A program made the position numbers and the translations under genes. A DNA stretch of 39,838 bases from a virus: positions 1 to 39,838 of IMG/VR virus record IMGVR_UViG_3300031260_000020, one strand, 5' to 3'. Under the pieces are notes generated by a model that saw nothing but the letters and a program-made list of their open reading frames with translations, was not told where the DNA came from and made no database searches. Positions 1 to 17,670 of this stretch are shown here, piece by piece (position 1 is the first letter of the stretch; each line of letters starts with the position of its first letter).

Positions 1-141
1 AATACCCAGCCAGTCATGATCCCACGCAACACGAAGAGTGTATAGACCCGCAATCAAGAGTGTGGGCCAAGAAAATATTGTCTTGAACACGCCCACGATC
101 AGGCCGCCCCCGGTAACAACTATCTGTGAGAGCAAGCTCCA
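1..141. repeat. Terminal direct repeat, identical to 39698..39838 (junction of a circular or terminally redundant genome)
   Basis: Positions 1-141 (aatacccagccagtcatgatcc...gagagcaagctcca) match the last 141 nt of the window exactly. Confidence 0.9.
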
Positions 142-999
142 AGCTGTACCGGCAACCTTGAGTGTCAGGAACGCAGCACCCACACCAACAACAGCCTTGC
201 CGAACGGCCCGAGTTCTTCGTATCCTGCCTTGATAGTATCTTTCAACGTCTTGAGAATGTCGGTCGGTTTCTCAATCTTCGAGCTGAAGTCTTCCATCCA
301 GCCCGCAGCTTTCTGAATGAGAGGATTGAAAGTCTTGCCCAGGACCTCCCCGACATCTCCGAGTGCAGACCAGAATCTCTTGATTCCCACCTGCGTGGTT
401 TCCGAGAGCTGCTCGGCAAAGCCGTCATACTTCTGAATCACGAGGTCGATTGCTGCGCCGCTCTTCAATTGTTCTTGAGTCAGTTCTCTTAAGAACGGGA
501 GAGCTTCTCCAAGTTCACCCGTCAATCCTGCCTGAGTCTTCGCAAGATTCTTCATTGCAGAGTTCAGGTCCATTCCCGTGACCTGAGATAACAAAGTAGC
601 GGCAAGTGTGGCGTTCTCGATCTTTTCTTCAGCTATCCCGAGAGACAGCCCGAGTGCCCCGAGCGCCTGATACGTTTCATTCCCCACACCTGTGAGGTGT
701 TGAAGGTTTGTTGAGAGCTTAGTTATTCTGTCATATGTACCCTGTGCGTCTCTCGTGAACCTCTGAGCCGCGATGGAGAGTTTCATCATTGCCTGCTCCT
801 GCTGGCCCCAGAGTTCAATAGACTTCTTCAACGTAGCCACAACAGAGACGGTCCCAAAAACACCCATCAGGGTACGACCTATCTGTTTCACTGTATTATC
901 AAACGACGCGGCTTGAGTCTGCATCGTCTTGATTCCGTCTGTGAAAGGTCTGGCGTTCAGACCGACGTCAAAATTCAATCCTTCGAAAGCCATAGTCAT
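1..999 (-). CDS. Tail tape measure protein, N-terminal portion (continues across the junction into 36017..39838)
   Basis: Minus-strand frame is open from ATG at 999-997 (MTMAFEGLNFDVGLNARPF...) to position 1; the repeat places this in frame with the 1271-aa ORF; in-frame stop upstream at 1102-1104. Confidence 0.6.
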   Translation of the reverse strand, partial: MTMAFEGLNFDVGLNARPFTDGIKTMQTQAASFDNTVKQIGRTLMGVFGTVSVVATLKKSIELWGQQEQAMMKLSIAAQRFTRDAQGTYDRITKLSTNLQHLTGVGNETYQALGALGLSLGIAEEKIENATLAATLLSQVTGMDLNSAMKNLAKTQAGLTGELGEALPFLRELTQEQLKSGAAIDLVIQKYDGFAEQLSETTQVGIKRFWSALGDVGEVLGKTFNPLIQKAAGWMEDFSSKIEKPTDILKTLKDTIKAGYEELGPFGKAVVGVGAAFLTLKVAGTAWSLLSQIVVTGGGLIVGVFKTIFSWPTLLIAGLYTLRVAWDHDWLGI

Positions 1000-1021
1000 C
1001 AACTCCAAAAGAAAGAAGCGC

Positions 1022-1290
1022 TCAATCAAGAGCGCTCCCTCTATTCTGGCTTGCCTGTTTTGCCCTCTCCGCTTCGCGCCTTTCAAGCGTCGAGATTCCT
1101 GTTATTCCGTAGAGATAGATCAATTGATCTTCACGATTGAGGTTTCTCCATTCTTCGAGTGTGAGTCCAAACTTCTGTATGCAGAGCATCACTTTCAGAG
1201 CTTCGGGGACGTAGTCTTCTTCATACTCGAATCTGTCCCAGTCGTACCAGTCACGTACCCGGTACTCTAGCTCTTGCTGGGCAAAAAATC
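1022..1290 (-). CDS. Tail assembly chaperone -1 frameshift extension (T part of a G-T fusion)
   Basis: The -1 frame relative to 1267..1833 is open from a slippery run (coding strand GGA TTT TTT G; A6 on plus strand at 1283-1288) to a stop at 1022-1024; translation ...EYRVRDWYDWDRFEYEEDYVPEALKVMLCIQKFGLTLEEWRNLNREDQLIYLYG...; directly upstream of the tape measure gene. Confidence 0.5.
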
Positions 1291-1833
1291 CAGCGCTTTG
1301 ATGTCACTCGCAATCTTGTTCAGCTGATTTGCAGTGAAACCCAGATCCTTGAGTGCCTGTTCAAACTCCTCTATCTTGTCGATTCCAAACTCTTCGACCA
1401 TGTCAAGACAGATCATTATCATCAGAATCGAGATGTCATTTGTCCTCTTCTCCACGGCCTTGAGATATTCGGAGTCTGTTTTGTCGTACACCATTGACCA
1501 GCCGTAGTTTGGATCGTTCTTCGCCTGATCGAGAGTGAGACCCTCCTCCATGAACTCTTTGCCAGTATTCTTGTTGATTAATCTCATGGTTTTCGGAGCC
1601 TCGGGTGCGGGGTACTTCTCGTGATACAGTTTCAGGACAGGATGATCTCCGAGTGGATAGATCTCGATCTCGGGGAACTCTTCTTTCATCTCTCCATTCT
1701 CATCAATTCGGGTAACTTTGATGACCGAGTATCCGTGAGACCTGAAGTATCCCTTCTTCGATTCATCCTTCATCATTTCTTTCAAATTAAGCCTTGACGC
1801 TTTCTGGGCGCTTGTTTTTGGCTTGTTTCCCAA
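1267..1833 (-). CDS. Tail assembly chaperone (gpG-like); true start probably the internal Met near 1776
   Basis: 188-aa ORF immediately upstream of the tape measure gene, ending in a slippery heptamer with an open -1 frame; overlaps the upstream gene if started at 1833. Confidence 0.5.
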   Translation of the reverse strand: MGNKPKTSAQKASRLNLKEMMKDESKKGYFRSHGYSVIKVTRIDENGEMKEEFPEIEIYPLGDHPVLKLYHEKYPAPEAPKTMRLINKNTGKEFMEEGLTLDQAKNDPNYGWSMVYDKTDSEYLKAVEKRTNDISILMIMICLDMVEEFGIDKIEEFEQALKDLGFTANQLNKIASDIKALDFLPSKS

Positions 1834-2872
1834 GTCTGTTCCCTCCTTTTTTGATCTGTTTCCATGCTATCTTCGCGAGCTTCTCCGGGTAGTCTCCCCA
1901 CGCCAGCTCGTCGTTCTCTATCGAGTTGGTTCTCGCCTTGATGGTTTGTGCAAATGTCGCGCACGCGTAGACCTGCTCCCATTGATCGAAGAGCGCCCAT
2001 GCCTGTGCAAGAGCAACCCACGATTCGCGGAGCCAGGGACACTCGGCCACAGACTTTAGCATCCACTCTATGACCTCACCCGCATCGACTGTCTTGTCTT
2101 GCTTGTGTCTCTGCATGAGAGCTTGCGAGATATACCGCATTGAGAGCGCCCGAAGTTGCTCAATGACCATGCGATTCTCGCCTTCCTCAATCTCTTTCGT
2201 GAGGTCAAGGTGTCTCTTGGCCTCTTCGATGGCCTCTTCAAACCTGTTGTGCATCATAAGTTCTCTGGCTCGAAGCCATGAAAGACGTTGATCTGTGGGA
2301 TCTTCGGAGACAGCCTTGTCGATGAGCTTCTGGTACTCTCTCGGTTTTGATAAATCCTGATAATGCCAGCTGTGAATATCCTCGCAATACACTTCGAGCG
2401 TCTCACCACTTCCGTGCCATGCCAAGATTTCGTGAATTGGAGACTCCCAGTGATAACCGTGCCGGACGTGGATCTTCCACTGGTACATTGAAGCCTTTGG
2501 TTTCGTGCACTTCTCATCGAACCAGCTGAACACGAAAGGCCAGCGAACGAGAGTGGCCTGCGGGTACATTTGAAAGATTTTCTCGACCTTCTTTTTCCAG
2601 CCCTTCTCAATCACTTCGTCGAGGTCAATACAGAGACAAACATCATAGTCTTCAGGCACGTTCTCAAGCGAGATGTTTCTGGCTACGTCGAATCGCCATG
2701 GCTCAACCTTAGCATGAAAGACATTGACCCCGCGTTCTTCGAGAAGCCGGACAGTGTCGTCAGTCGATCCGGTGTCGGTAACAAAAACTCCATCCGCTTC
2801 TTGGATAGAGTCATACCATCGAGGCACATTCTTGGCCTCGTTCTTGCATATCGCATACACTGCGACCTTCAA
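1787..2872 (-). CDS. Family-2 glycosyltransferase with helical/TPR-like C-terminal half
   Basis: N-terminus KVAVYAICKNEAKNVPRWYDSIQEADGVFVTDTGSTDDT and CIDLDE (DXD-like) are typical GT-A/GT2 motifs; 361 aa. Confidence 0.65.
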   Translation of the reverse strand: MKVAVYAICKNEAKNVPRWYDSIQEADGVFVTDTGSTDDTVRLLEERGVNVFHAKVEPWRFDVARNISLENVPEDYDVCLCIDLDEVIEKGWKKKVEKIFQMYPQATLVRWPFVFSWFDEKCTKPKASMYQWKIHVRHGYHWESPIHEILAWHGSGETLEVYCEDIHSWHYQDLSKPREYQKLIDKAVSEDPTDQRLSWLRARELMMHNRFEEAIEEAKRHLDLTKEIEEGENRMVIEQLRALSMRYISQALMQRHKQDKTVDAGEVIEWMLKSVAECPWLRESWVALAQAWALFDQWEQVYACATFAQTIKARTNSIENDELAWGDYPEKLAKIAWKQIKKGGNRLGKQAKNKRPESVKA

Positions 2873-2891
2873 GTTATCCCCTCCCTGTGTG

Positions 2892-3344
2892 TTACACGTC
2901 GTCGTTCCTTTCTATCTCGATCAGTGCAACCGTTCCGGTATAGTACGCTGTACCGTCTGGTGCCCTGAGTGCCTGATTGAATTGGCAGCGTTGTTCCCCT
3001 GCCGTGTCCGCAAAGACCACATAGAACCTGCCTTGATACTCCGTGCCGTCATCGTCTTGCATCGGGAACGTGAGAGTCATTGGGTTCGCGACGTTCGGTT
3101 TTGCCTTCAGAAAGTCGTGGAGCTTTGAGACTTCCTTCTGCGTTGCGACTCCGTTTTCATCCCAAGTCAGCAAAAAATACTGAAACGTCGAACCCTGTTC
3201 GGTTTCCCATTTGTCGACTATCTCCCCGCTTTCCGCATCTGTCTCTGTGGGAGCGTTCGGAGAATAAAGCCAGCTTTCGTAGTCTTTCGGTTTGAGCTGG
3301 ATTATCTCTCCTCCATACTCAAGACTAATCATAGAGATCACCAC
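2892..3344 (-). CDS. Hypothetical protein (tail module)
   Basis: 150-aa ORF, protein-like composition, no recognisable motif. Confidence 0.4.
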   Translation of the reverse strand: MVISMISLEYGGEIIQLKPKDYESWLYSPNAPTETDAESGEIVDKWETEQGSTFQYFLLTWDENGVATQKEVSKLHDFLKAKPNVANPMTLTFPMQDDDGTEYQGRFYVVFADTAGEQRCQFNQALRAPDGTAYYTGTVALIEIERNDDV

Positions 3345-4230
3345 ACTTTATGACAATGTTTTCAGTTCCGTTCAGGTAGTCCAGAGAAGCGTCCGGGTCG
3401 ATATGGCAGACTCCAAGATACTCTGTGCTCGAATCGCGAGGGTTTTCTACCTTGAGTCTGAATTTCTTGTCTCTGTATTCTTCGAGAATGTTGTCTTGAG
3501 ATTCGATGAGGTCTTTCCCCACCGAGACCGTGTATGTCTTGTTGCCCGAGACTTTCAAGGGTGCTCCGTCAACATTGAGATACCCTGTTTTCTCTTCGTT
3601 CTCGGTAACCGTCAGGTCAACGAGAGCCGGGACGGTTTCAACCGTTCCCGAGACTTCAAAATATTCAAGTGCAACAACCGGTTCTTGATATTCGACAGCG
3701 AGGTTATACTCAATTTCTATCAGTGCCTTACGCCTCGGGGCGGTAGCAAATGTCACATTGGTAGTCGTAACGGTCACGTCGGTTTCTTCGAGACCATTCA
3801 CATATGCCTTGATGTTTGATGTGCCGCTTGGTGTCTCTGAGAGAGTAAACACCGTAGTGTAACCGTCTCCTTCAAATATGTCCAATTGTTTCTGCTGATT
3901 TAGTTCAACCAGCGCGCCGTCTCTATCCGTGACAAACCCAACTCCAGCACCTATTTCTGTTGTTTGAGGAATGAGGAGCATGTATAGAACTTCATGATCT
4001 CCATCTGCCACGGTTGCCGCGCAGGTAGTCCCCACAACAGTACCGGTCACACCTCCGGTGACTTCACAGTTTCCCTTGCCAGCATACGAAAGTGTTGCAG
4101 TGTTGCTCGCAAAAGTCACTGTCTCCTTATACCAACGTCTCAGCAACTTCCAGCCGTTATCATAGTATATTTCGTCTCTTGCTTCTGAATTCCCGTAAAG
4201 TTCATAATCCAGATACATTGAATCGTTCAT
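3325..4230 (-). CDS. Putative virion structural protein with Ig-like beta-rich C-terminal region (possibly major tail protein)
   Basis: 301 aa; Thr/Val-rich segment YTTVFTLSETPSGTSNIKAYVNGLEETDVTVTTTNVTFATAP resembles Ig-like domains; located in the tail module. Confidence 0.35.
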   Translation of the reverse strand: MNDSMYLDYELYGNSEARDEIYYDNGWKLLRRWYKETVTFASNTATLSYAGKGNCEVTGGVTGTVVGTTCAATVADGDHEVLYMLLIPQTTEIGAGVGFVTDRDGALVELNQQKQLDIFEGDGYTTVFTLSETPSGTSNIKAYVNGLEETDVTVTTTNVTFATAPRRKALIEIEYNLAVEYQEPVVALEYFEVSGTVETVPALVDLTVTENEEKTGYLNVDGAPLKVSGNKTYTVSVGKDLIESQDNILEEYRDKKFRLKVENPRDSSTEYLGVCHIDPDASLDYLNGTENIVIKCGDLYD

Positions 4231-4268
4231 AGATTCACCTCCAGTAGAGGTTCAAGATATTTGCGTCA

Positions 4269-4958
4269 TTATCTTAGAAATTCACTCAGTTCTTTCTCTG
4301 ATGCGTCTTTTCCATATATCCTGTGAAATTCTCTGTGACACTTAGGGCAAAGTAAAATACCGTTACTGGGTTCACACATTAGTTCTGCATAAAATCTAAC
4401 TGGTTTGATGTGGTGAACGTGCATCCTGCTTTTTGAAGTACCACACTTTTGACATCGATAATTGTCTCTTTCTCTAACTGCTTTCAGAAAGTCTTTGAAT
4501 TTCTTTGTTGCTCTAATTCGTTCAAATTTAGAAGAGATTCCGCCTTTCCAATTTGGATGTTCTGCACCTTTTCTTCTTAGCTTTTTAGCAGATTCGGCCG
4601 CCTTTTCTTTTTGCAAACAACCGCAACTTTTAGTCTTCCCATTTTCCAACATCCAATTCATAACTTCAATTTGGTTACCACACTCACAATTGCATATCGA
4701 ATAACCCGTCCTTGAAGAAGGAGCAATAACTGTGAGCCTACCGTATTTTGATCCAACTTCAAGTTCCTTCCCCAGTTTTTGTTTTAATGCACACTTTTGG
4801 CACATATGATGACCGTTTTTCACTAACCTGCTATAAGCAACGATTCTCACTTCTTCACAGACTGGGCATTGAACCTCCACCAACTTGGTTGATGATGGTT
4901 TCAACTCGCTAACTGGTATTTGTCTTCCTCTGTATTTAACAGTTTTCGTCAGTATCAC
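4269..4958 (-). CDS. HNH endonuclease with N-terminal Cys-rich zinc-finger-like region (GTG start)
   Basis: C-terminal motif YRCQKCG...HVHHIKP...NGILLCPKCH is a classic HNH signature; RBS GAAGGAG 8 nt upstream of GTG. Confidence 0.8.
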   Translation of the reverse strand: MILTKTVKYRGRQIPVSELKPSSTKLVEVQCPVCEEVRIVAYSRLVKNGHHMCQKCALKQKLGKELEVGSKYGRLTVIAPSSRTGYSICNCECGNQIEVMNWMLENGKTKSCGCLQKEKAAESAKKLRRKGAEHPNWKGGISSKFERIRATKKFKDFLKAVRERDNYRCQKCGTSKSRMHVHHIKPVRFYAELMCEPSNGILLCPKCHREFHRIYGKDASEKELSEFLR

Positions 4959-5008
4959 CGCATCATCTCCTTCAATATATTATATCACATAATGCGGTAA
5001 GACGAATG

Positions 5009-5078
5009 ATTATTCAGATTCCAATAGAAAGGTCCTGCATTTGAGCTGTTATTCCAATTGCTGCCCTGTTGAAAGCAG
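5009..5078 (-). repeat. DGR-like template repeat (TR), non-coding, between the target gene stop and the HNH gene
   Basis: 70-bp match to 5206..5275; all 13 mismatches fall at TR positions that are A on the coding (minus) strand; in the target frame TR encodes AAT/AAC-rich ...CFQQGSNWNNSSNAGPFYWNLNN. Confidence 0.75.
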
Positions 5079-5145
5079 GCTCCTTCAATCACAGACCAAA
5101 CTTGTATGTTAGTGTACCAAAATTGTTACAAACCGGCGAAAACCA

Positions 5146-6504
5146 TTAAACCGTAGGAACATAGCAGGCGCGCGCCCCGATGCTCCGATACCGATAAGCG
5201 AACGAATAAGCCAGATACCAATAGAAAGGCCCCGCATATGAGCCGTTATACCAATGGCCGCCCCGTAGAAAGCAGTTCGTACTATAACTAGACGGTGCAT
5301 AAAGATGGTCACATACGAACTTGCTTGCAGATGGAACATCTGTTTGGATACTTTTCGGCAGGAACAGACCTTTAGAGTCAGGAACCCAATAAAAATTTTT
5401 CAGGTATCCGTTTGTAACCGGAGGAGAGCACGGTATCTGAGTATAGCCGGCCAGTGTATTGTTGTATGGCCTATCGGGAGCTACATAATAACCATCAGAC
5501 TTTATGCCTCCACCGTCTGTAAACTCCCACATGTCGCCCCACCAGTTTTCCAGCCCGAATAGAGAAACAGCCTCAAGGTTTGTACCGCCTGTGTCCACTG
5601 CTCCGAGTGAAGCCGTCGCACCTGTAAGCTCTGATTCGTTCCCTGTGCCAGATGCTTTTCCTGTTATGCCCTGTCCTATCATCGCCTGCGCATTGAAATT
5701 TGCATATTTGATAAGATAGAGAAGATTAACCATTCCGGCCTGTTTCAAATCAACAAGTCCCCATCCGGTACCCCTGTTCTCTGCCATGGTGCGAAATTCC
5801 GGTAAGGTTTGATTTGATTTTGGCTTTCTTCCCGATACCGAACGCAGCATGTGGTTTGGTAAATCACCAGTAGCTATCAGTATCGGAGTCGAACCGTCTG
5901 ACGGGTCTTCTATCCATGTACTATCTGAGATTCTTTGCACTGTACCTTTATATGCTCCTAAATATATTTCTTCGAGTATTTGCCCGCCAATTACAAAGCA
6001 GTCAAATGGTACAAACCCAGGCAGCGGTTCAGGTGAAAAATACATTCTTACTTTTTCGTCTTCCGGTGAGTAATATGTGAAATAATAGGCTTTCTTGAAC
6101 CTTGATACCACATCGCCGGCCGTGCCATCTTCAATAAATCCTGGATCACCAAAAGATGCGACCCAATTTCCAGCACTATCGAGAGTCATTCTTTCTATGC
6201 TCGCAAATGGTTCGATAAGATTAAAATCGCTAGAACCCATCCCGACGGCTTTTCCTATCCTGGTAAGCACGGGAGAGCTATCACTGAGATCCCATTCCAC
6301 ACCATATGCATCATCTGGGATATTATGAGCTATCAGCTCTCCTATTCTTGCTCCAGTCAAACCGGAATGTTTGCCATAGAAATGAGGAATATAACCGCAC
6401 CGCCCTTTGTTTGTGCGATTCAGCATTCTTGTTTGAACTTCCTGCTCTGTGAGTTCTTCTATGCTGAGACTGATCTTTTTCTTCTGCCATTTTCTGTATG
6501 CCAT
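5146..6504 (-). CDS. DGR-type variable target protein; C-terminal C-type-lectin/FGE-sulfatase-like fold; putative receptor-binding/tail protein
   Basis: C-terminus ENWWGDMWEFTDGGG...FLRGGHWYNGSYAGPFYWY...RSIGARACYV resembles FGE/CLec domains of DGR variable proteins; carries the VR at its 3' end. Confidence 0.7.
   Translation of the reverse strand: MAYRKWQKKKISLSIEELTEQEVQTRMLNRTNKGRCGYIPHFYGKHSGLTGARIGELIAHNIPDDAYGVEWDLSDSSPVLTRIGKAVGMGSSDFNLIEPFASIERMTLDSAGNWVASFGDPGFIEDGTAGDVVSRFKKAYYFTYYSPEDEKVRMYFSPEPLPGFVPFDCFVIGGQILEEIYLGAYKGTVQRISDSTWIEDPSDGSTPILIATGDLPNHMLRSVSGRKPKSNQTLPEFRTMAENRGTGWGLVDLKQAGMVNLLYLIKYANFNAQAMIGQGITGKASGTGNESELTGATASLGAVDTGGTNLEAVSLFGLENWWGDMWEFTDGGGIKSDGYYVAPDRPYNNTLAGYTQIPCSPPVTNGYLKNFYWVPDSKGLFLPKSIQTDVPSASKFVCDHLYAPSSYSTNCFLRGGHWYNGSYAGPFYWYLAYSFAYRYRSIGARACYVPTV
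5206..5275 (-). repeat. DGR-like variable repeat (VR) inside the 3' end of the target gene
   Basis: Encodes ...NCFLRGGHWYNGSYAGPFYWYLAY; differs from TR only where TR has adenine; followed by a GC-only stretch GGGGCGCGCGCC (IMH-like) absent next to TR. Confidence 0.75.
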
Positions 6505-6549
6505 TTTCTGCCTCCCAGTTCAAAGAATGAAGGGGCCGGAGCCCCTCCA

Positions 6550-6786
6550 TCAGAGAGTTTTTTCATCAATTACTTCTTTGGTTCCAAGACTCTTCACGAT
6601 TGCCTCTTTCAGTTCTTCGAGAACAACATTCGTAGCAATACACTGGAGAGTAACCTTGTTGTTCTCAATGAACTTGTCTGATTCGATCGTGATTGGACCT
6701 TTAATTGTGGTTTTTGTAGGATTCTCGAACTTTGCTAACAGTTTGCCATTCCCATCGTACAACTCAATCTCATAAACGATGTTCAT
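6550..6786 (-). CDS. Hypothetical protein
   Basis: 78-aa minus-strand ORF between the putative major tail gene and the DGR target. Confidence 0.3.
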   Translation of the reverse strand: MNIVYEIELYDGNGKLLAKFENPTKTTIKGPITIESDKFIENNKVTLQCIATNVVLEELKEAIVKSLGTKEVIDEKTL

Positions 6787-6794
6787 AACATCAC

Positions 6795-7355
6795 CTACGA
6801 TGTGATGTCGGTTGGGGCGCCCACAATCTGCATCCTGAGAGTAACCTGAGCTTTGTTACTGGTGCTGAAGGTCGCAGAAATCGGTCTGACATATTTATAG
6901 CTCTTTCCAAACGCCTTCGAAGTTCCAGCGTTGTTGAACAAGACTTTCATACCGATTGTGAACCAGCTAGTAGCAAGATTTGCAGATACGGTAGTGCCGT
7001 CGATACTCTTCTTCAAGTATGCAGAGCCATCATTCGTGCTAACAAGCGCGGTGGCTCCGTTGCTCTCTTTGTGATTGTTGAACCATTCGTTCAGAGCATA
7101 CTTGTTAGTTGCTACATCATCATCGTTGATGTCGACTGTTATTGAGAACTCTGGCAGATTGACAGTGTCGTCACCCTCTTCTATGCTGTTGAAAACACCT
7201 TGAGGTGCATAACCTTCGGCCGGAGCATCAACGACAGGTTCGGGCAGTTCCGGAACGTCAGCATACCCGGTGATGGTCTCGGTGAATGGTGTGGTAGGTG
7301 TACCATCAAACAGCGAGATGGTCACATGTTTCTTTCTAAGATATGGTCTTCCCAT
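6795..7355 (-). CDS. Putative major tail (tube) protein
   Basis: 186 aa, follows head-tail joining genes; assigned by position and size only. Confidence 0.4.
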   Translation of the reverse strand: MGRPYLRKKHVTISLFDGTPTTPFTETITGYADVPELPEPVVDAPAEGYAPQGVFNSIEEGDDTVNLPEFSITVDINDDDVATNKYALNEWFNNHKESNGATALVSTNDGSAYLKKSIDGTTVSANLATSWFTIGMKVLFNNAGTSKAFGKSYKYVRPISATFSTSNKAQVTLRMQIVGAPTDITS

Positions 7356-7373
7356 GAGAAGTTCCTCCTTTGT

Positions 7374-7787
7374 TTACTCGATAAATTCATAATACACAGT
7401 GATGGCTCGCACTGCGTAGTTGCTTAATGTTGATTGCTGAGAGAGTTCATATCTGGAGATCTGAAGCTCTCCAAGCTTAACTGTTGGTTTTCCACCTACA
7501 TAATCCATGACAGGAATGCTACTTGAGTCTTCGATTGCCGCTGTGAGAGTGCCGATGATAGTATCAAGCGTACTTACGCTCTTTGAATGTACGAGTAGTT
7601 GAGTAAAGTCGTACTGATACGCTTTTCTATCATCCTGTGCCCTCCCCATCGACGTTTGAAGTTCGATGAAGCTATCCTCAGTCATATTCTCATTCTTTCG
7701 ATCTATGTACCATGTCCCCGAGCTGTACTTTCCTGAAAAGTACATTCTCAGAGACGCTTGAATGTTTCGGTAGAGAGCGGCTGTCAT
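7374..7787 (-). CDS. Putative tail terminator / tail completion protein
   Basis: 137-aa ORF in the canonical position between neck and tail tube genes. Confidence 0.35.
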   Translation of the reverse strand: MTAALYRNIQASLRMYFSGKYSSGTWYIDRKNENMTEDSFIELQTSMGRAQDDRKAYQYDFTQLLVHSKSVSTLDTIIGTLTAAIEDSSSIPVMDYVGGKPTVKLGELQISRYELSQQSTLSNYAVRAITVYYEFIE

Positions 7788-8173
7788 TGCGCCTCCCTCC
7801 TCTTTTTCTCGATCCAGGCTTCGATTCTGGAACGTATGAATTCAGGGGCCTTCCTTCGCCATTCTTCCAGTGTCCTGCGAACGAAGCCCGCACTTGCTGC
7901 CTGACCGTATTCAACATGGAAGATATACTCAGTGTTGTTGAAGATATGGTAGGCCATAGCATTTGCAATTTCTGCGAGATTCCAATTGCCTCTCAAGTTC
8001 CCGGTCACCACGGGCGAGTTGAGCTTCAGGTCCGCAAGTATTGCATTAGCCAAATCACGGATAACAACTTTTGCGCACTCGGGGTCCATCCGTGCCGAGA
8101 GAGTCTGCAGGTATCTGTTCAGTTCATCCACATTGGAGCGAATATGAGCGTCTCGATCGCCATGCTGTTTCAT
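7784..8173 (-). CDS. Putative HK97 gp10-like neck/tail component
   Basis: 129-aa ORF, translationally coupled (4-nt overlaps) within the head-tail joining cluster. Confidence 0.4.
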   Translation of the reverse strand: MKQHGDRDAHIRSNVDELNRYLQTLSARMDPECAKVVIRDLANAILADLKLNSPVVTGNLRGNWNLAEIANAMAYHIFNNTEYIFHVEYGQAASAGFVRRTLEEWRRKAPEFIRSRIEAWIEKKRREAQ

Positions 8174-8508
8174 GTGGGGTTGACTCCGAGAACGAAGTAA
8201 CCCTGCTTGATCTCCAGCACGTCAATACGGTAGTCTGAACTACTGATCTCCAGTATGTCTGATACTGAAACCTGAGCGGTGAGAATAACCCTCAGAGACT
8301 CAAGAGTCAGTTTGCCGTTGCTGCTCGCTATCTGATCCTGTCTCCACGAACCGACATATCCTGTCGTCTCAGTCTCTGTACCATACGTTGTCGTTTGCAA
8401 GCCTGTGAGCGGGTCGATCGTGGTAGTAGGATTTGACTTGATGGTGAACGTGGACTGGGGCAGCTTCCTTATGAAAGCAGGATTGAGACTTGCAAACTTG
8501 CTAAACAT
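8170..8508 (-). CDS. Putative head closure / head-tail adaptor protein (start at internal Met; the 207-aa track ORF is an over-extension)
   Basis: Upstream part of ORF 8170..8793 overlaps the connector gene in another frame; MFSKFASLNPAF... begins at 8508. Confidence 0.4.
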   Translation of the reverse strand: MFSKFASLNPAFIRKLPQSTFTIKSNPTTTIDPLTGLQTTTYGTETETTGYVGSWRQDQIASSNGKLTLESLRVILTAQVSVSDILEISSSDYRIDVLEIKQGYFVLGVNPT

Positions 8509-8809
8509 AGCGGACCCTCCGGTATCTGTTGAGAGTGTCGAGAATCTTCTGAGAATAACTACTCTCGTATGTAACCGAAGCACCTTCGAGACTCTGAGAC
8601 TTAATACCCGAGTTCTCCAGGAGCTGATGATCCACCATGTCACAGGCTGTGAGTTGGAGAGCTGCTGGCAAGTCTTCGTCATCGTCATATCCACAGATAC
8701 CCTTGATCTCGGCTTCAACTGCTGCGATGATTGCTGTGAGTTGAGTGTCTTGAGTTGAGCTTGTGATTCCCCTGAGTGCTTTGTATTGAACAAGTGTCAG
8801 GAGTGCCAT
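8501..8809 (-). CDS. Head-tail connector protein (gp6-like)
   Basis: 102 aa, directly downstream of the capsid gene cluster; size and position typical. Confidence 0.5.
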   Translation of the reverse strand: MALLTLVQYKALRGITSSTQDTQLTAIIAAVEAEIKGICGYDDDEDLPAALQLTACDMVDHQLLENSGIKSQSLEGASVTYESSYSQKILDTLNRYRRVRYV

Positions 8810-8821
8810 TCTAGCACCTCC

Positions 8822-8846
8822 AAAAAAAGGGGGCCGTCTAGGCCCC
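8822..8846 (-). terminator. Rho-independent terminator after the capsid-region genes
   Basis: Minus strand reads GGGGCC-tagac-GGCCCC followed by TTTTTTT. Confidence 0.6.
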
Positions 8847-8850
8847 TTTG

Positions 8851-9360
8851 TCAGTATTCAAACTTGAATAAATACACCCCGGCGCTAGGTACGCCATTCG
8901 TGGCCACTGCATTCCAGGTAATTTTCACCGAAATATAGCCTCCCGATTTGAGAAATTGGAAGGTTTCTAGCGGGCCGATTATGAGACTTGCGGTGTCAGT
9001 GCCAGTCAGGGTTTCGGAGAGAGACCCTTTCGAAGCCCCTCCAAAGTCACCCGGGAGAATTTCGATAACTATACTGGTTGCATAAGCTGTGGGTGAAGCG
9101 TCGGAGAGTTCTGGGTCTATCTTGAACATAATGCCGATCCGCGGCGAGTCATACGCGAAATTGAATGTGCAGGCGTATGTATCTGTCGAGACATTGGTTG
9201 AGGTCGTGGCTACCAGCGTGAGAGTTGCCATATCGCTCAAGTCGAACTCCACGAAATCTCGTCCTGTGACTTCGACCGGGGTGGCTGTGATGGTCGTACC
9301 AAAAGTAAGCCCTCCAACTAGGAGGGCGATAACAACAAATAGCGTTGCAAGTTTTTTCAT
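8851..9360 (-). CDS. Signal-peptide protein of unknown function encoded between capsid and connector genes
   Basis: N-terminus MKKLATLFVVIALLVGGLTFGTTITA is signal-peptide/TM-like; Thr/Ser-rich beta-type body. Confidence 0.5.
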   Translation of the reverse strand: MKKLATLFVVIALLVGGLTFGTTITATPVEVTGRDFVEFDLSDMATLTLVATTSTNVSTDTYACTFNFAYDSPRIGIMFKIDPELSDASPTAYATSIVIEILPGDFGGASKGSLSETLTGTDTASLIIGPLETFQFLKSGGYISVKITWNAVATNGVPSAGVYLFKFEY

Positions 9361-9371
9361 GATATCACCTC

Positions 9372-10214
9372 TTAAGCCTTCGCCACAAGAAGATCGACGA
9401 GGCAGGCTGGCTGGACTACTTTGCGACCGTACACATAGAGCCCTTTAATCGCATCTGCAAACATCTTCTCGACTCTGTATGCCTCGGTCTTGTTGACCTG
9501 ACCAGCAAAACTAATAGCCTCTCTGGTCCCGGCGAGAACGTGGTAGTCTGTGCCTCCGGCATCGATATCGAGGTTGTTCGACCAGAGTACAGAGAATCCG
9601 GCGACTACGGGGACAACTCCTGTGGCCATATAGTTCTGCCACGCCTGCTTGTAATCGTCGTCTTTGAGAAGAACTCCGTGATACCAGGGCGGAATGACTA
9701 TCCATCTACCCTCTCTGGGAACGTTGTGCTCATCCATCTTAACACCAACATCGACTATGAGGTCATAGGGGTTTTCATTTCCCACTGCGTTGCCCACAGA
9801 GTAGGCGGCCCCGGCATTGTCCATCGTTATGCCCGCATCTCCGTGAAGACCTGCGACATCCTGGTCAATCAGGTCCGCAAGAGCGTATGCCGCTCTGGCC
9901 ATAGCTTTATCCATGAGCGTCACGTTCGACTGGGCGGCGTCCACGTCATCGACGTAGAAGTTGTAATAGTGGAGCTGGTCGATGAGCAGGAGCTGTTGGG
10001 CGGAATCGAGCTGGTCAGGATCCGCGATCGCGACGTTTTTAACGTAAGGCTTTACTGTAATGTTGCCTATCTGGTTGATTCTAACTGTATCTCCGGCGGC
10101 TTTAATCTCGCCTTCGTAATCTGTATTCACGAGCTGTTTGAACACGAGATTCTTGTCGAGATGCCGCTGAAGTCTTGTGCTCCATATTTCGGGAATGAAG
10201 TTATCTACTGGCAT
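9372..10214 (-). CDS. Major capsid protein
   Basis: 280 aa, immediately downstream of the scaffold gene; N-terminus MPVDNFIPEIWS... typical of capsid proteins. Confidence 0.65.
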   Translation of the reverse strand: MPVDNFIPEIWSTRLQRHLDKNLVFKQLVNTDYEGEIKAAGDTVRINQIGNITVKPYVKNVAIADPDQLDSAQQLLLIDQLHYYNFYVDDVDAAQSNVTLMDKAMARAAYALADLIDQDVAGLHGDAGITMDNAGAAYSVGNAVGNENPYDLIVDVGVKMDEHNVPREGRWIVIPPWYHGVLLKDDDYKQAWQNYMATGVVPVVAGFSVLWSNNLDIDAGGTDYHVLAGTREAISFAGQVNKTEAYRVEKMFADAIKGLYVYGRKVVQPACLVDLLVAKA

Positions 10215-10229
10215 TTCTGTTCACCTTCC

Positions 10230-10844
10230 TTAAAGTTTAATTTTTCCTTCTTCAAATAGCTTGTTAAATTTGGCCGGGTCTTTCTTGGCCATTTCCCTTG
10301 CCTGTTCCTTAGAAATCATTCCTGGCACGGGTTCGGGATTCGCGGGTTCGCGGCCGTTATTCTTGAGCAGTTGCTCCGTGAGCGTTTTTTTGTAGCTTTC
10401 CAAAACCTGCTCATATGCGGCGAGGGTCTTTTCTGTGCTCTCTTCGTCAGAGCCGATCAGGTTATCCACGATATCAACGGGAAGCTTCTTTTCGGAGAGC
10501 TTCTTGATGGCGAGATTCTTGAGACTTTCTTTTTTTCTGGCCGCTGCCTCCTCATTGAGCCTCTGCTCAAGCTCCCTGATCTTCTTCTGTTCGGGTGTCT
10601 CTTCCGGATTGACTTTCGCGATTTCTTCGTCCACCAGTTTCTTGAGGTTGTTCGCCTTCCAGGTCTCAAGACCCTTCGTATGGAAAGAATCGCGGTAGCT
10701 TTTGAATATGTCGTTCTTCTCGACGAATTCACCCACATTGTCTTTAGTGACGGTCGCCAATGGGTTGAACTTCGATGTGAATTCCTTTACTTCTGGTGCT
10801 TCGATATTCGTTTTGATTAGTTCCAACGCTTCTTTGAGTTCCAT
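10230..10844 (-). CDS. Scaffolding protein
   Basis: 204 aa, Lys/Glu-rich predicted coiled coil, located between head morphogenesis and capsid genes. Confidence 0.6.
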   Translation of the reverse strand: MELKEALELIKTNIEAPEVKEFTSKFNPLATVTKDNVGEFVEKNDIFKSYRDSFHTKGLETWKANNLKKLVDEEIAKVNPEETPEQKKIRELEQRLNEEAAARKKESLKNLAIKKLSEKKLPVDIVDNLIGSDEESTEKTLAAYEQVLESYKKTLTEQLLKNNGREPANPEPVPGMISKEQAREMAKKDPAKFNKLFEEGKIKL

Positions 10845-10967
10845 TTATATATCTCCTGTCCCTCAGAGTGCCACATGCCCTCAGAGTGGTTTGTATTGTT
10901 CATGAAAAAGCCCCAGCGTATAGGCACCGGGGCAGGGAGGTGAGAATGAAGAAAGTACGTGTCTTGT

Positions 10968-11273
10968 TTAGAAAAACTTGTTTATGTTATCTGTTGCTTC
11001 TGAAAGTGATTCAGCAATCTTCTCTGCAAGCTGGTCAATTTCTTTCTCAGCCCCATCTAAGTTCAAAGTTACGCCCAAACAGTTTGGATGCTCCGGTTCT
11101 TTTACTTCCGGTAGCTTGTTCCAGTTGTAGAACACTTCCTTCATTTTCAGATACAGCTCTGCCGAATACTCTGCTCTTCTCTCACCCAGAGCTTTGACTA
11201 TCTCGTGCATTTCATGTGCATTTAGTTCAAGTGTCACCTTTCTCAAACTTACCCCTCCTTCTGTTTCTTCCAT
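10968..11273 (-). CDS. Hypothetical protein
   Basis: 101-aa ORF. Confidence 0.3.
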   Translation of the reverse strand: MEETEGGVSLRKVTLELNAHEMHEIVKALGERRAEYSAELYLKMKEVFYNWNKLPEVKEPEHPNCLGVTLNLDGAEKEIDQLAEKIAESLSEATDNINKFF

Positions 11274-13003
11274 TCGCTGTATGTGATATAGTCGCTTATT
11301 CCTTTACCCTGAATCATTCTCGTTCTAGGTTCGCTGCCTTCAAACACGAATATAGTTGTGCACCGGCAATTGTGTGTTATAATACCTTTGTAGATGTCTT
11401 TGTCATTTGAAGACGCTAAATACCATCCGACTTGAGTTTGGAGGTTATAGATTTGGCCGCTAAAAGGGAAGACGTCAATATCAACGATCTTATCGCTAAA
11501 TATCTTCAAGGCTTTTCTGTCAAAGCCCTTTCCGAGTTTTTTAATATTTCCAGAACCGCTATCATCCCTAGACTCAGAAGAGCAGGTATCAGACCTCGCA
11601 ATAGAAGTGAGGCCATGTATCTCAGAATGGCCCAAACCACTTCTGAAGAAAAAGCTCGCCTTGCCGAAAAGGCTCACGATGCTGTTCGTGGCAAGCCTAA
11701 ATCCTTCAAAGCACTTGCTAAGCAAGCCAAAAAGAGGCAACTTACACATTCTCAAGTGGGCAAAGGAGAATATTTGCTTGCTTCTTGGCTTGAAGAAAGA
11801 GGACTTTCTCCGGTTCTTCAAGAAGCCGTTGGCAAGTACAACATCGACATTTCCTGCTGCCCCGTCGCCGTGGAATTGCTTGTCAACGCCTCGAACCCTT
11901 TTGCTAGGGCAACTGATAGAAAGAAAATTGAATACCTTACCAACCGAAATTGGACGGTTATTTATGTTTGGGTTACTAAAAGACACTTTCTTTCTGAAGA
12001 GGCCGCAGAGTATATCGTCTCCCTTTTTGAGAGAACACATTCCGACCCAACCCTTAGGGGTAGCTATTGGGTGATTAGGGGTAGCGGCGAACTCTATGCC
12101 ACTAGCTGTTCTAATTCTAATTAATGTACCTGAATACTCTCTCTTTGTGGCGGCTTCAATCTTGTTGCTACATATTATGGTGTCTTCGGGAATACAGTTG
12201 ATGTCTTCAGACGCGACTCCGAACATCCCCGGGGCCTTAGTCTTGAGACCTCGAATGTGAAAGTATCCGTCCTTATCTTCGATCTGACCGTCTAGCGCTC
12301 TGTGAGTGTCACGAGTCTTGCTGTCGAGTGTGGCCACCCACATTCTCTTGGCTTCGACCCCTTTCTCCTGCATCTTCTGCATGGCTTCGAGCTGGGCCTC
12401 TTCCTTGCATCTGTGGCTCTCAGTCCATATGATTCTGGTGGCTTTGACATAGTTATTCTCAAGCGCGGCCTTTAACCGATCCGCAGTCTTGAAGTAACTT
12501 TCACCTTTAATGAGACCTTGCGTGACTTCCTGACGGATTCGCCAGAGGATCTCCTGACGGTTCTTTTCAAGAATCTCGGTGAGTGTGAGGCCCGAGACTG
12601 GATTCTGAATAGCCTTCTTGATGTAGTCTTTCGGGAGCTGATACCATCTGAGATTGATTCCTGTCGCCTGTTCTGCGATCCAGCCCATGCGGTTGTAGCC
12701 TTCTGAATAAACCTCAAATAAAAGAGTCTGGACCTCTCTCGCCTGAGTACGTGAGAGTTCTAGAATCGCTGCGTCGAGATCTTTCTGCATCTTTCTCAGA
12801 CGGTCGTACTTCTGCATCTCGGCCAGCGTGAGCTTGCCGCTTCTTGAGAAAGTCTTGTAGTATTTCTCGAGCTGCTCTTTCGTGGCCTTGAGCGATTCGC
12901 GGTAGGCTTTCTCGAGTTCCTTCAACTGGCGCTTCGTGAATCCGTCGTACCATCGCTCGAAGTCGTCGAAAGCGCCCTTAATTGTTAGCGCCATCGCCCT
13001 CAT
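11249..13003 (-). CDS. Head morphogenesis (minor head) protein interrupted by an intein
   Basis: Follows the portal gene; contains Hint-type boundaries: ...SEDIN/CIPEDTIICSN...TPNHPI... and ...DIYKGIITHN/CRCTT. Confidence 0.65.
   Translation of the reverse strand: MRAMALTIKGAFDDFERWYDGFTKRQLKELEKAYRESLKATKEQLEKYYKTFSRSGKLTLAEMQKYDRLRKMQKDLDAAILELSRTQAREVQTLLFEVYSEGYNRMGWIAEQATGINLRWYQLPKDYIKKAIQNPVSGLTLTEILEKNRQEILWRIRQEVTQGLIKGESYFKTADRLKAALENNYVKATRIIWTESHRCKEEAQLEAMQKMQEKGVEAKRMWVATLDSKTRDTHRALDGQIEDKDGYFHIRGLKTKAPGMFGVASEDINCIPEDTIICSNKIEAATKREYSGTLIRIRTASGIEFAATPNHPIATPKGWVGMCSLKKGDDILCGLFRKKVSFSNPNINNRPISVGKVFNFLSISCPSKRVRGVDKQFHGDGAAGNVDVVLANGFLKNRRKSSFFKPRSKQIFSFAHLRMCKLPLFGLLSKCFEGFRLATNSIVSLFGKASFFFRSGLGHSEIHGLTSIARSDTCSSESRDDSGSGNIKKLGKGFDRKALKIFSDKIVDIDVFPFSGQIYNLQTQVGWYLASSNDKDIYKGIITHNCRCTTIFVFEGSEPRTRMIQGKGISDYITYSEWKKQKEG
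11369..12196 (-). mobile_element. Intein (about 276 aa) within the head morphogenesis gene
   Basis: N-terminal Cys then block B TPNHP; C-terminal ITHN followed by Cys+1; central region is low-complexity on the sense strand. Confidence 0.6.
11432..12124 (+). CDS. Antisense ORF inside the intein: HTH plus PD-(D/E)xK (Vsr/DUF559-like) endonuclease-like protein (TTG start)
   Basis: 230 aa with protein-like composition; FNISRTAIIPRLRRAGI (HTH) and GEYLLASWLEERGL...YNIDISCCPVAVELL...NRNWTVIYVW resemble Vsr/DUF559-type nucleases. Confidence 0.4.
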   Translation: MSLEVIDLAAKREDVNINDLIAKYLQGFSVKALSEFFNISRTAIIPRLRRAGIRPRNRSEAMYLRMAQTTSEEKARLAEKAHDAVRGKPKSFKALAKQAKKRQLTHSQVGKGEYLLASWLEERGLSPVLQEAVGKYNIDISCCPVAVELLVNASNPFARATDRKKIEYLTNRNWTVIYVWVTKRHFLSEEAAEYIVSLFERTHSDPTLRGSYWVIRGSGELYATSCSNSN

Positions 13004-14340: not shown

Positions 14341-15585
14341 TTACCTCCATGCTGAGTATCCGGCTGTGATTTTTCTTGGTCTCGTGAATATTCCGTACCT
14401 GAGAGCGTCCATGCAGTGGTCGTTCTCTTTCAGCGGCTTATCTTCACCACGTTCGGCCGCCTTGTTATCCCAGGCGTAACCATAGAACTCTTTGATCGTT
14501 TCCTTGCAGGAAGAATGAATCTTGATGTGACCTTTATCCAACTTATTGGCCACGGTGCGGATCCCATCAAGAACGTCGTTTTTAGCCTGGGTGACTTTGA
14601 ACCCGTGCTGCTGAAGTTCCACGATGAAAGAAGCCGCCGAGGGATCGACTATGATCTCCGTAGTCCGCTTCTCGAATTCGTTCCTCTGGAGAAAGACTTC
14701 GAGATCTTCTCGATACTGGGTGTCGGTCTTCTGTTTCCCTGTCTCTCTCCCTGAATGGTAGTATTCCGAGAGAATGAAGGTATCTTCTCCAGCGTCGCCC
14801 ATCGCCAGAAAGACCGTGGGATTTCCGGTCCCGTAGTCGCAGGCGACGTACTTTCGACTCAGAGAGCCCGGAAGGCTTGCCACCACGTGTTTCTCCTCTG
14901 AGAACATATCGTAGATGATCCCCTCTGCTATGACCCACTGACCGAGAATGAACCTGCGATACCACATACCCGAGTAAGCTTGTTTCAGTTCTTCCTTGTA
15001 TCTTTCATCCAGGGTGAGGTTGTCCTCGAGGTTGAAGTGCCAGTGACGATAGCCCTTCGTTCCCGCCTGGTCGATATATTCCTTCTTGATGAAATGGTTC
15101 GGATTGTCCGGGTTCGTGGTCCAGATGGCCTTCGCGCCAGGCAGGGACATTCTGTTGATTGCCTGCTTGATGAACGTTTCGTGGTGAAGCGTGGCCTCGT
15201 CTGCGTACCAGCCCGCTATCGTCATTCCTCTGATCGCTTCTTCCGAAGTGACCTTGTCAGCTCCGCGACAATAACAGACTTTATCGCCGGCTCGAGAATG
15301 AAAGATTAACTGCGGACCACCTTTTGGTGACTTCTGATATGTAGCCCTGCGGTCTCCAACAGTTTTAACCAAATCTTTAACCACGTTTCGGTACAGCGAG
15401 TCTGTGGATTCGCCGCTCATGAGAAACTGGTCGTATGGATTCGTGAGAACAAAGTACAACCATGCCACGTTGGCCGCGATTGTCTTTCCCGACCTGACAG
15501 ACCCCTCGAGAATATTGATGAAAGAATCGAAGCCATCTATAACATCAAGCTGTTTTGAGCTGAATGGTTTCCAGTCGCAACTCAT
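14341..15585 (-). CDS. terL: Terminase large subunit
   Basis: Walker A-like GSVRSGKT, Walker B-like WYADEAT, C-terminal nuclease-like ENDHCMDALRY. Confidence 0.85.
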   Translation of the reverse strand: MSCDWKPFSSKQLDVIDGFDSFINILEGSVRSGKTIAANVAWLYFVLTNPYDQFLMSGESTDSLYRNVVKDLVKTVGDRRATYQKSPKGGPQLIFHSRAGDKVCYCRGADKVTSEEAIRGMTIAGWYADEATLHHETFIKQAINRMSLPGAKAIWTTNPDNPNHFIKKEYIDQAGTKGYRHWHFNLEDNLTLDERYKEELKQAYSGMWYRRFILGQWVIAEGIIYDMFSEEKHVVASLPGSLSRKYVACDYGTGNPTVFLAMGDAGEDTFILSEYYHSGRETGKQKTDTQYREDLEVFLQRNEFEKRTTEIIVDPSAASFIVELQQHGFKVTQAKNDVLDGIRTVANKLDKGHIKIHSSCKETIKEFYGYAWDNKAAERGEDKPLKENDHCMDALRYGIFTRPRKITAGYSAWR

Positions 15586-17139: not shown

Positions 17140-17670
17140 TCAAGTCCCTTCTTTGTAGATTTTAAGATAGTCCATAGTCAATTCAAATAATCTTTCTACA
17201 TCAACCCTCACATTGCTTCCATCATCCACCAAGAGATCTTCTCCTGTGTCTTGGAAGATTCGCTTGATGTTTCTCCTCACGCCTTCGTAGTCATCAATAA
17301 GTTGGCGGGCAAACCAGATAAATGCCTTCCTAGTATTAGGAGTTAAATTATCACTTGCCCTAATTATTCTATGGCAAAAATAATGACAGTTCGGGCAAAC
17401 AAGCAGGAAATTGTCAAACGTATTCCCTCCGCCTTGAGAATATGGTATGAAGTGATGTGTTTGAAGCATTGTTGAAAATTCTCTTGGAGGTACAAATCCA
17501 CAAATGTCGCATTGTGCTGTTCGAGTTTTCAATCTAAGACTTTTGTAATGTCGGATACTCTTCACGTATATTTTCCTATTTCTTTCGTCTTCCTTTGGTA
17601 TTTCTACGTGTTTGCCTATTTTAATCGACAGAAGCAAATCTTCTACACTCATCCAACAACCTCCTCGCAA
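17140..17670 (-). CDS. HNH endonuclease (terminase-associated)
   Basis: CDICGF...HHFIPYSQGGGNTFDNFLLVCPNCH HNH motif; located upstream of the terminase genes. Confidence 0.8.
   Translation of the reverse strand: MRGGCWMSVEDLLLSIKIGKHVEIPKEDERNRKIYVKSIRHYKSLRLKTRTAQCDICGFVPPREFSTMLQTHHFIPYSQGGGNTFDNFLLVCPNCHYFCHRIIRASDNLTPNTRKAFIWFARQLIDDYEGVRRNIKRIFQDTGEDLLVDDGSNVRVDVERLFELTMDYLKIYKEGT

Follow-up and report, generated by a model that had tools for sequence, protein, structure and literature searches.

A likely decayed diversity-generating retroelement at a phage tail-protein gene, with an HNH endonuclease gene in the position of the reverse transcriptase

Organization of the genome and of the locus

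The window analyzed here is the whole 39,838-nucleotide stretch of IMG/VR record IMGVR_UViG_3300031260_000020. Its first 141 bases are identical to its last (1-141 = 39698-39838, a 141-bp terminal overlap), and it is a complete circular genome of ~39.7 kb, in which all recognisable genes lie on the minus strand. A region of ~1.1 kb (142-1100) that seems to be free of ORFs was considered as a possible hidden RNA or reverse transcriptase (RT) and was ruled out, as it corresponds to the N-terminus of the tape-measure gene, which has 1593 codons and spans the circular junction. Positions 1-12000 gave no megablast match among GenBank phages, Rfam models at the gathering threshold did not match anywhere in the window, and a scan of 4150-5350 for promoters and terminators yielded nothing beyond the expectation from shuffled sequence.

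The features of the locus, which carries parts of a diversity-generating retroelement (DGR) with a template repeat (TR) and a variable repeat (VR), are the following:

5146..6504, minus strand: DGR target gene, encoding a 452-aa tail protein with a predicted C-terminal C-type-lectin-like variable domain
5159..5275, minus strand: VR, full length 117 nt, as defined by alignment to the 117-nt TR of sibling contig L020
5167..5178, minus strand: IMH-like GC stretch GGGGCGCGCGCC at the 3' end of VR
5009..5078, minus strand: TR remnant, the 5' 70 nt of a former 117-nt TR, as defined by repeat search and alignment
4267..5007, minus strand: inserted cassette with an HNH ORF (4269-4958), which takes the place of the RT together with its spacer and the 3' part of TR
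4228..4266, minus strand: fossil of the 3' end of the RT gene, reading RKYLEPLLEVNL and a stop, and overlapping the start of the downstream gene with its ribosome-binding site
3325..4230, minus strand: conserved 301-aa gene, directly after the RT in intact siblings, without family match

Adenine-specific differences between the two repeats

Read on the minus strand, which is the coding one, TR (5078..5009) and VR (5275..5206) can be aligned along 70 nt with 13 mismatches and no gap. All 13 fall on adenines of TR, which make up 23 of its 70 positions, and none of the 47 non-A positions differs; the chance of all mismatches falling on A is P = 2.4e-8 (hypergeometric). The same pair was recovered independently by repeat search, and no third copy of the repeat was found in the window. 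VR covers residues 411-449 of the 452-aa target and lies within the last 45 codons of its ORF. Both the ungapped, A-only match and the location of VR inside the 3' end of gene 5146..6504 had been put forward in a first-pass annotation made from the sequence alone, and are confirmed by these analyses.

The same bias is observed between lineages: in eight close sibling lineages, VR is variable at 24 of 27 sites that are A in TR, versus 9 of 70 non-A sites, and nearly every one of 34 sibling proteins carries a VR of its own.

The target protein and its predicted fold

The target protein matches PHROG 5302 ('tail protein') with an E value of 5.6e-71. An AlphaFold2 model built on a 41-sequence alignment had a mean pLDDT of 84, and its best Foldseek matches in the PDB were TaqVP (5vf4, E 2.6e-12), five Mtd variants (1yu0-1yu4) and TvpA (2y3c), followed by FGE-like sulfoxide synthases. 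In this model the target folds like known DGR variable proteins, and the C-terminal C-type-lectin-like fold that had been proposed to hold VR is thus supported by structure prediction.

Close relatives of the target (81-89% identity) are present on many metagenomic phage contigs. Two distant homologues, in L008 (27% identity) and L018 (36%), are each followed directly by a TR and an RT. In GTDB genomes, where 61 homologous loci were informative, mostly in prophages of Clostridia, an RT of the same clade was located just downstream in 41, and the remaining 20 had neither RT nor TR. The family is a real DGR target family. One target homologue was binned into a Synergistaceae MAG.

An intact cassette at the same locus in sibling phages

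Contig L020 (ENA ERZ773285, 16.8 kb), whose target is 82% identical to that of the window, carries a complete DGR at the same locus:

2623-3981: target gene of this complete-DGR sibling
~3852-3968: VR, 117 nt
4049-4165: TR, 117 nt, with 20 mismatches to its own VR, 19 of them at A
4285-5289: RT, 334 aa, with RVT_1 and PHROG 1423 matches and the motif IGNYTSQ

The RT of L020 is followed by genes for 302-aa and 146-aa proteins, a glycosyltransferase, a 188-aa protein and the tape-measure protein, as in the window. By blastn, L020 1646-4118 aligns to window 7472-5009, and L020 5250-9518 to window 4266-1 with 91.5% identity. The segment between them, L020 4119-5249, has no counterpart in the window; it is made up of 47 nt at the 3' end of TR, the spacer that separates TR from RT, and RT codons 1-322.

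The comparison with L020 also redefines the repeats. The TR of the window is 94% identical to positions 1-70 of the L020 TR, and of the 117 positions the similarity extends to the 70th, where it stops abruptly. In the window VR, the remaining 47 nt, at the 3' side, can also be aligned to the L020 TR, most of the substitutions again being at A, and over the full 117 nt there are 22 mismatches, 18 of which are at TR adenines. Thus, the segments first annotated as TR (5009..5078) and VR (5206..5275) are a real repeat and its real partner, but the former is a 3'-truncated remnant of a 117-nt TR, a truncation that had been missed, and the true VR is longer (117 nt, 5275..5159).

At its 3' end VR has GGGGCGCGCGCC; at the corresponding place the intact L020 TR has GGAGCACGCACC. 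This fits the type of difference seen between an IMH and an IMH*, and makes GGGGCGCGCGCC, at 5178..5167, a candidate IMH; the GC-only, IMH-like stretch that had been described after VR is located here. It is unchanged in 9 of 10 distinct sibling VRs, the exception being L002, which has GGAGCGCGCGCC. A hairpin or cruciform after VR, like that of BPP-1, was considered and rejected, since the DNA fold of 5180..5079 was no better than that of shuffled sequence (z +1.65).

Intact cassettes are not limited to L020. A second RT-bearing sibling lineage, P0087, includes 16 contigs, eight of which were examined (L102-L109), and complete cassettes were identified in L020 and in L104-L109. The RT clusters P0087, P0088 and P0089 have 25, 8 and 2 member sequences, respectively. 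At least one sample (ERZ773285), from which L020 with its intact DGR came, also yielded a contig with a more distant, RT-less target homologue. We also searched for the TR type of the window by exact scans for a 26-nt TR segment in viral, metagenome and GTDB genome collections; these returned only RT-less siblings from the viral and metagenome collections and nothing from the GTDB genomes, and thus no intact copy of a window-type TR, with its A at positions 20, 32, 37 and 46, was found.

Absence of a reverse transcriptase and its fossil 3' end

No RVT family was detected by Pfam among the 18 largest ORFs of the window, nor among 140 six-frame stop-to-stop fragments of at least 80 aa, which matched 24 families, all with ordinary phage functions. 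Three related DGR RTs (from L008, L018 and L020, mutually 50-57% identical) were employed as tblastn and phmmer queries against all six frames, and were also combined into an HMM that was run unfiltered; the only match was of 12 residues, at 4265..4230. No remnant of the L020 spacer, TR 3' end or RT DNA was found elsewhere in the window. The profile searches bear out the initial observation that the genome has no RT, and since the genome is circular and complete, this absence applies to the genome as a whole.

The initial report of no avd-like gene also holds, in that no Avd family appeared among the hits of the general Pfam scan (18 large ORFs and 140 six-frame fragments). In the intact sibling L020, only ~300 nt separate target and RT, with no ORF between them. 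According to PMC5758913, Avd is not universal among DGRs.

The 12-residue match joins residues 323-334 of the L020 RT to 4265..4230 (tblastn, 83% identity). Window 4266..4228 reads RKYLEPLLEVNL followed by a stop, and the L020 RT ends in RKYLEPLMEVKL followed by a stop. These terminal residues recur in distant DGR RTs (as VKYIDPI in L018), indicating that 4266..4228 is truly a fossil of the RT. The following gene has its start codon and ribosome-binding site within it, which is probably why the fossil was retained.

An HNH cassette in the position of the reverse transcriptase

In place of L020 4119-5249, the window has 741 nt of unrelated sequence (4267-5007). Within it, ORF 4269-4958 encodes an HNH endonuclease (Pfam HNH, E 2.7e-7, residues 169-212), which also matches several PHROG HNH endonuclease families, and which is preceded by TGATATAAT (noted by eye only) and GAAGGAG. 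That an HNH gene occupies the position of the RT had escaped the first-pass annotation, and became visible by comparison with L020.

The cassette is present in the window and in L021, and absent from L001, L002, L003, L004, L005, L010, L019 and L020. Between the window and L021 it is 93-99% identical, versus 65-89% for the adjacent target gene. In the TR remnant of L021, the 3' half matches that of the window, and the 5' half differs from L021's own VR at three non-A sites, a disagreement that shows recombination at the locus. Taken together, the higher conservation of the cassette than of its flanks and the mosaic TR of L021 indicate that the HNH cassette probably moved horizontally and recently, with co-conversion of flanking sequence. 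Free-standing homing endonuclease genes are known to behave in this manner. A search of IMG/VR for relatives of the HNH gene gave only partial matches of 44% and no other close copy, so that the case for its mobility is made by the window and L021. That the HNH gene belongs to a mobile homing-endonuclease cassette, which would have displaced the RT by recombination between co-infecting relatives, is in our view an evenly balanced proposition; we infer that homing of the HNH gene may have caused the loss of the RT.

A series of alleles among siblings

The alleles of the locus can be arranged in five classes. An intact cassette is present in L020 and the P0087 lineage. The window and L021 have a 70-nt TR followed by the HNH cassette, and L001, L005 and L010 have a 70-nt TR followed by a 58-nt, terminator-like filler. 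L004 retains a TR stub of 23 nt, and L002, L003 and L019 have no TR. Each allele without an RT picks up again at one and the same point of the RT fossil, ACGCAAATATC, and there is thus one right-hand boundary. The possibility that the 58-nt filler of L001 derives from the HNH cassette was ruled out.

Probable decay of the element and the state of its variable repeat

We propose that the locus is very probably the remnant of a decayed DGR, with a frozen VR and with its RT replaced by an HNH-bearing insert. The parts kept where relatives have a complete cassette are VR, 70 nt of TR and 12 RT codons. Among the features of a functional DGR, A-confined differences between TR and VR and a VR at the 3' end of a C-type-lectin-type target are present here; an RT, a full TR with IMH* and spacer, and Avd are absent. 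The ancestral element would have been arranged as target gene-VR(+IMH)-TR(117 nt)-spacer-RT, without avd, and would have diversified the C-terminal, lectin-like tip of the tail protein. From this genome, RT codons 1-322, the spacer before them and the 3'-most 47 nt of TR have been removed, and a 0.74-kb unrelated insert carrying a free-standing HNH gene now stands there instead. In the absence of the RT, of the TR 3' end with IMH* and of the spacer, mutagenic retrohoming should no longer be possible, and VR would thus have remained frozen since the loss.

The last writing of VR can be placed tentatively by two positions at which TRs are polymorphic. At positions 20 and 37 the window VR has C and A, its own TR type has A at both, and the L020 TR type has G at both; the TR of the P0087 lineage has G at position 37. 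The window VR therefore fits its own TR type at both positions, which suggests that it was last written from the TR of its own lineage, before the loss.

Comparisons between siblings bear on whether RT-less VRs are static. Thirteen contigs, drawn from JGI, Logan and ENA, encode one and the same target protein of the RT-less L001/L005 type, and L001, L005 and L010, from three samples, share a single VR. L001 and L010 differ at 23 positions, all in one 170-nt patch, and are otherwise identical, including around VR, so that this pair has little power as a test of VR freezing. The TR-less P0074 and P0081 differ at six residues outside VR and at none inside, whereas the RT-bearing P0060 and P0068 show 0 of 410 differences outside VR and three inside, with identical TRs; P0068 and P0071, of an RT-bearing lineage, share one VR. 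The contrast between static RT-less and varying RT-bearing VRs is suggestive, and not decisive. Compared as proteins only, P0073, P0077 and P0080, from the 90% cluster of the TR-less L003, have 7-13 residue differences in VR and 0-1 elsewhere, and P0059, P0077 and P0080, again at the protein level only, are actively varying target variants.

The non-A sites of VR diverge by 0-9% between siblings, versus 15-24% for the 600 nt of the target upstream (pairs with L019 reach ~44% upstream, in an ungapped comparison that is unreliable), and in L002, which has no TR, VR matches the TR consensus at every non-A site. Such values leave two readings, recent losses or a continuing refreshment of VRs. The single right-hand boundary could reflect one old loss followed by continued diversification at A sites. 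For the pattern of VRs and junctions as a whole, recent repeated losses, recombination that shuffles VRs and junctions, and refreshment in trans are all possible accounts.

Alternative explanations

Could the two repeats be an ordinary duplication, whose bias towards A arose by chance or from a mutational process unrelated to DGRs? The repeat is indeed small, but a chance of 2.4e-8 for the A-only pattern, the canonical DGR with RT at the homologous position in siblings and the clustering of cross-lineage variation at TR-A sites already contradict this reading, and we give it practically no weight. It is also very improbable that an RT is present and was missed, with a sequence too diverged to be recognized by the profiles or within a protein that lacks annotation. 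ORFs without family match do exist (for example 3325-4230, 2892-3344 and 1267-1833); however, in intact siblings they follow the RT in an unchanged order and are thus not replacements of it. Moreover, the orthologous RT of a sibling with flanks 82-91% identical in DNA matches only the 12-codon fossil, and Pfam RVT models match no six-frame fragment of at least 80 aa.

A further alternative is that the cassette is still active, with RT and full TR RNA from a co-infecting sibling, a resident prophage or the host rewriting the window VR, which still has its IMH-like end, by means of mutagenised cDNA. Phages without an RT would in that case be free-riders on the DGR of their siblings. The first-pass annotation had offered service by an RT in trans and recent decay as two options, and it is the decayed branch that gains, from the L020 RT at the position of the HNH gene and the 12 RT codons left, whereas no positive evidence was obtained for the other. 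There are nonetheless observations with which rewriting in trans would agree. VR and its IMH-like end are intact in the window, RT-bearing siblings are common (25, 8 and 2 sequences in P0087, P0088 and P0089), and at least one sample, ERZ773285, gave both the intact L020 and a contig with a distant RT-less target homologue. In the Bordetella phage system, avd-TR-brt supplied in trans works experimentally, as cited in PMC5758913. In addition, non-A sites of VR have diverged far less than the target gene has elsewhere, even in the TR-less L002, and the VRs of all RT-less alleles are very different in spite of their common right boundary. Recombination at the locus, as seen in L021, can however account for shared junctions with different VRs, and the L001/L005-type protein is identical on 13 contigs, with one VR in L001, L005 and L010 from three samples. 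The window VR (C20, A37) fits its own TR type and not that of L020, nor G37 of the P0087 TR, and no intact window-type TR was found in the viral, genome and metagenome collections. It is because of these last two points that we regard rewriting in trans as unlikely; the window's own TR, having no 3' end or spacer, is itself unlikely to be usable as a template. An extension of the same idea, in which the DGR is a shared good, most genomes, having lost the RT and often TR, keep VR and IMH to be rewritten by co-infecting RT-bearing siblings, and the HNH gene spreads by specifically displacing the RT, would account for near-identical non-A sites of VR despite ~20% target divergence and for the single right boundary, but we hold it to be similarly improbable. 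If service in trans did occur, it would change how DGR activity and the evolution of host range are deduced from single genomes.

Comparison with known systems

Incomplete DGR cassettes have been described in crAss-like phages. In genus I of AlphacrAssvirinae (Morozova et al. 2020), cassettes have the avd-less order TG-VR(IMH)-TR(IMH*)-RT, and in the crAss-like clade 16% are complete and 73% incomplete, with VR in 80 genomes and TR in only 30, according to PMC7290462. Complete cassettes beside fragments were also noted in a later paper (PMC12386605). On the basis of these two sources, an RT-less phage DGR remnant is of a known kind. The locus described here resembles the crAss-like DGRs in the gene order of its intact siblings, in having a tail protein with a CLec domain as target, in the lack of avd and in the mixture of complete and fragmentary cassettes. 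It differs in that the 39.7-kb phage has a tape-measure gene and is apparently siphovirus-like, in that its lineage probably comes from anaerobic digester or bioreactor communities, and in that the RT is gone save for its last 12 codons, with an HNH gene in place. What is particular to the window is the base-level reconstruction, the fossil RT end and the HNH gene exactly at the RT position. In the passages of the DGR literature that were consulted, no mention was found of an HNH gene replacing a DGR RT, and in text consulted from a paper that mentions both DGRs and homing endonucleases the two are not linked.

Search pipelines that start from the RT are blind to DGR remnants of this type. The locus and its siblings provide a base-resolved series of DGR loss, from the intact cassette to the HNH gene or short filler, to the TR stub and to the absence of TR, in which the traffic of homing endonucleases is one possible route of loss. 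An A-only TR/VR signature can outlast its enzyme, and is thus not evidence of current hypermutation.

With the DGR of Bordetella phage BPP-1 (mtd-avd-TR-brt), the locus shares A-specific transfer from TR to VR into the CLec fold of a tail receptor-binding protein and a GC-rich IMH (here a candidate) at the 3' end of VR, and Mtd is among the structural matches. It differs from BPP-1 in that the lineage has no avd and no significant hairpin or cruciform downstream of VR, and in that the window has no RT, IMH* or spacer, so that the mechanism cannot run. Thermus aquaticus TaqVP (5vf4), the best structural match, likewise has its VR in the ligand-binding face of a CLec fold, but sequence identity is only 17-18%, and TaqVP is a cellular protein and not a phage tail protein.

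The HNH gene resembles the free-standing HNH genes of Staphylococcus and Bacillus phages in being a small ORF between conserved genes, in its presence/absence polymorphism in close relatives and in its higher conservation than that of its flanks. It differs from annotated phage HNH genes in sequence, with only 25-30% identity, and in that it replaces the RT of a retroelement. Among the other genes of this phage are those for RecT and a YqaJ-like exonuclease, which could support the recombination by which such a cassette moves.

A common right-hand junction in RT-less alleles

All sibling loci that lack a reverse transcriptase (RT) gene (L001-L005, L010, L019 and L021), as well as the window at position 4266, resume at one identical base of the RT 3' end (ACGCAAATATC). 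The left-hand junctions of these same alleles differ and fall into five types. The shared right-hand base could reflect one ancestral loss of the RT, a hot spot of cleavage or recombination, or selection on the translation signals of the downstream gene.

Many contigs of RT-bearing siblings (L102, L103, L107, L109 and L110-L115) begin inside or shortly before the VR/TR region, at points 20-450 nt upstream of the RT. In RT-less genomes this region is assembled straight through. Such contig starts would be expected if assembly were broken by VR microdiversity or by the TR/VR repeat.

Remoter target homologues (67-69% identity) are found in L014/L015 and in L017, and their 3' ends are VR-like, with the same IMH-like stretch as in the window. 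Neither TR nor RT was found near the homologue in these loci. In L014/L015 (contigs of 125-161 kb), it is surrounded by large tail-fibre-like genes.

Genome ends and other genes

The window carries an exact terminal direct repeat of 141 bp (1-141 = 39698-39838). An exact repeat of this length is typical of a circular contig produced by a k=141 assembler, and therefore indicates that the genome, of approximately 39.7 kb, is complete in the window. Further features are as follows:

36020-39838 on into 1-1101, minus strand: tape-measure gene containing an SLT lytic transglycosylase domain; its length from stop to stop is 1593 codons
1787-2872, minus strand: family-2 glycosyltransferase (PHROG 13126, E 5e-80)
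11249-13003, minus strand: Mu-F-like head protein, 584 aa, with a candidate intein inside
17140-17670, minus strand: a second gene for an HNH endonuclease, unrelated to the first (Pfam HNH, E 1.5e-9)

The first 1.1 kb of the window apparently lacks ORFs because the tape-measure gene crosses the junction and spans both window ends. The glycosyltransferase gene, which is kept in all siblings, lies within the tail gene module, with the DGR target on one side and the tape-measure gene on the other.

Residues 274-524 of the head protein match Pfam Intein_splicing (E 9.9e-5, with a score under the gathering threshold), and its sibling in L017 has only 227 aa; the protein appears to be split by an intein. 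The second HNH gene and the terminase large subunit gene (14341-15585) share a strand, with the HNH gene lying approximately 1.6 kb upstream.
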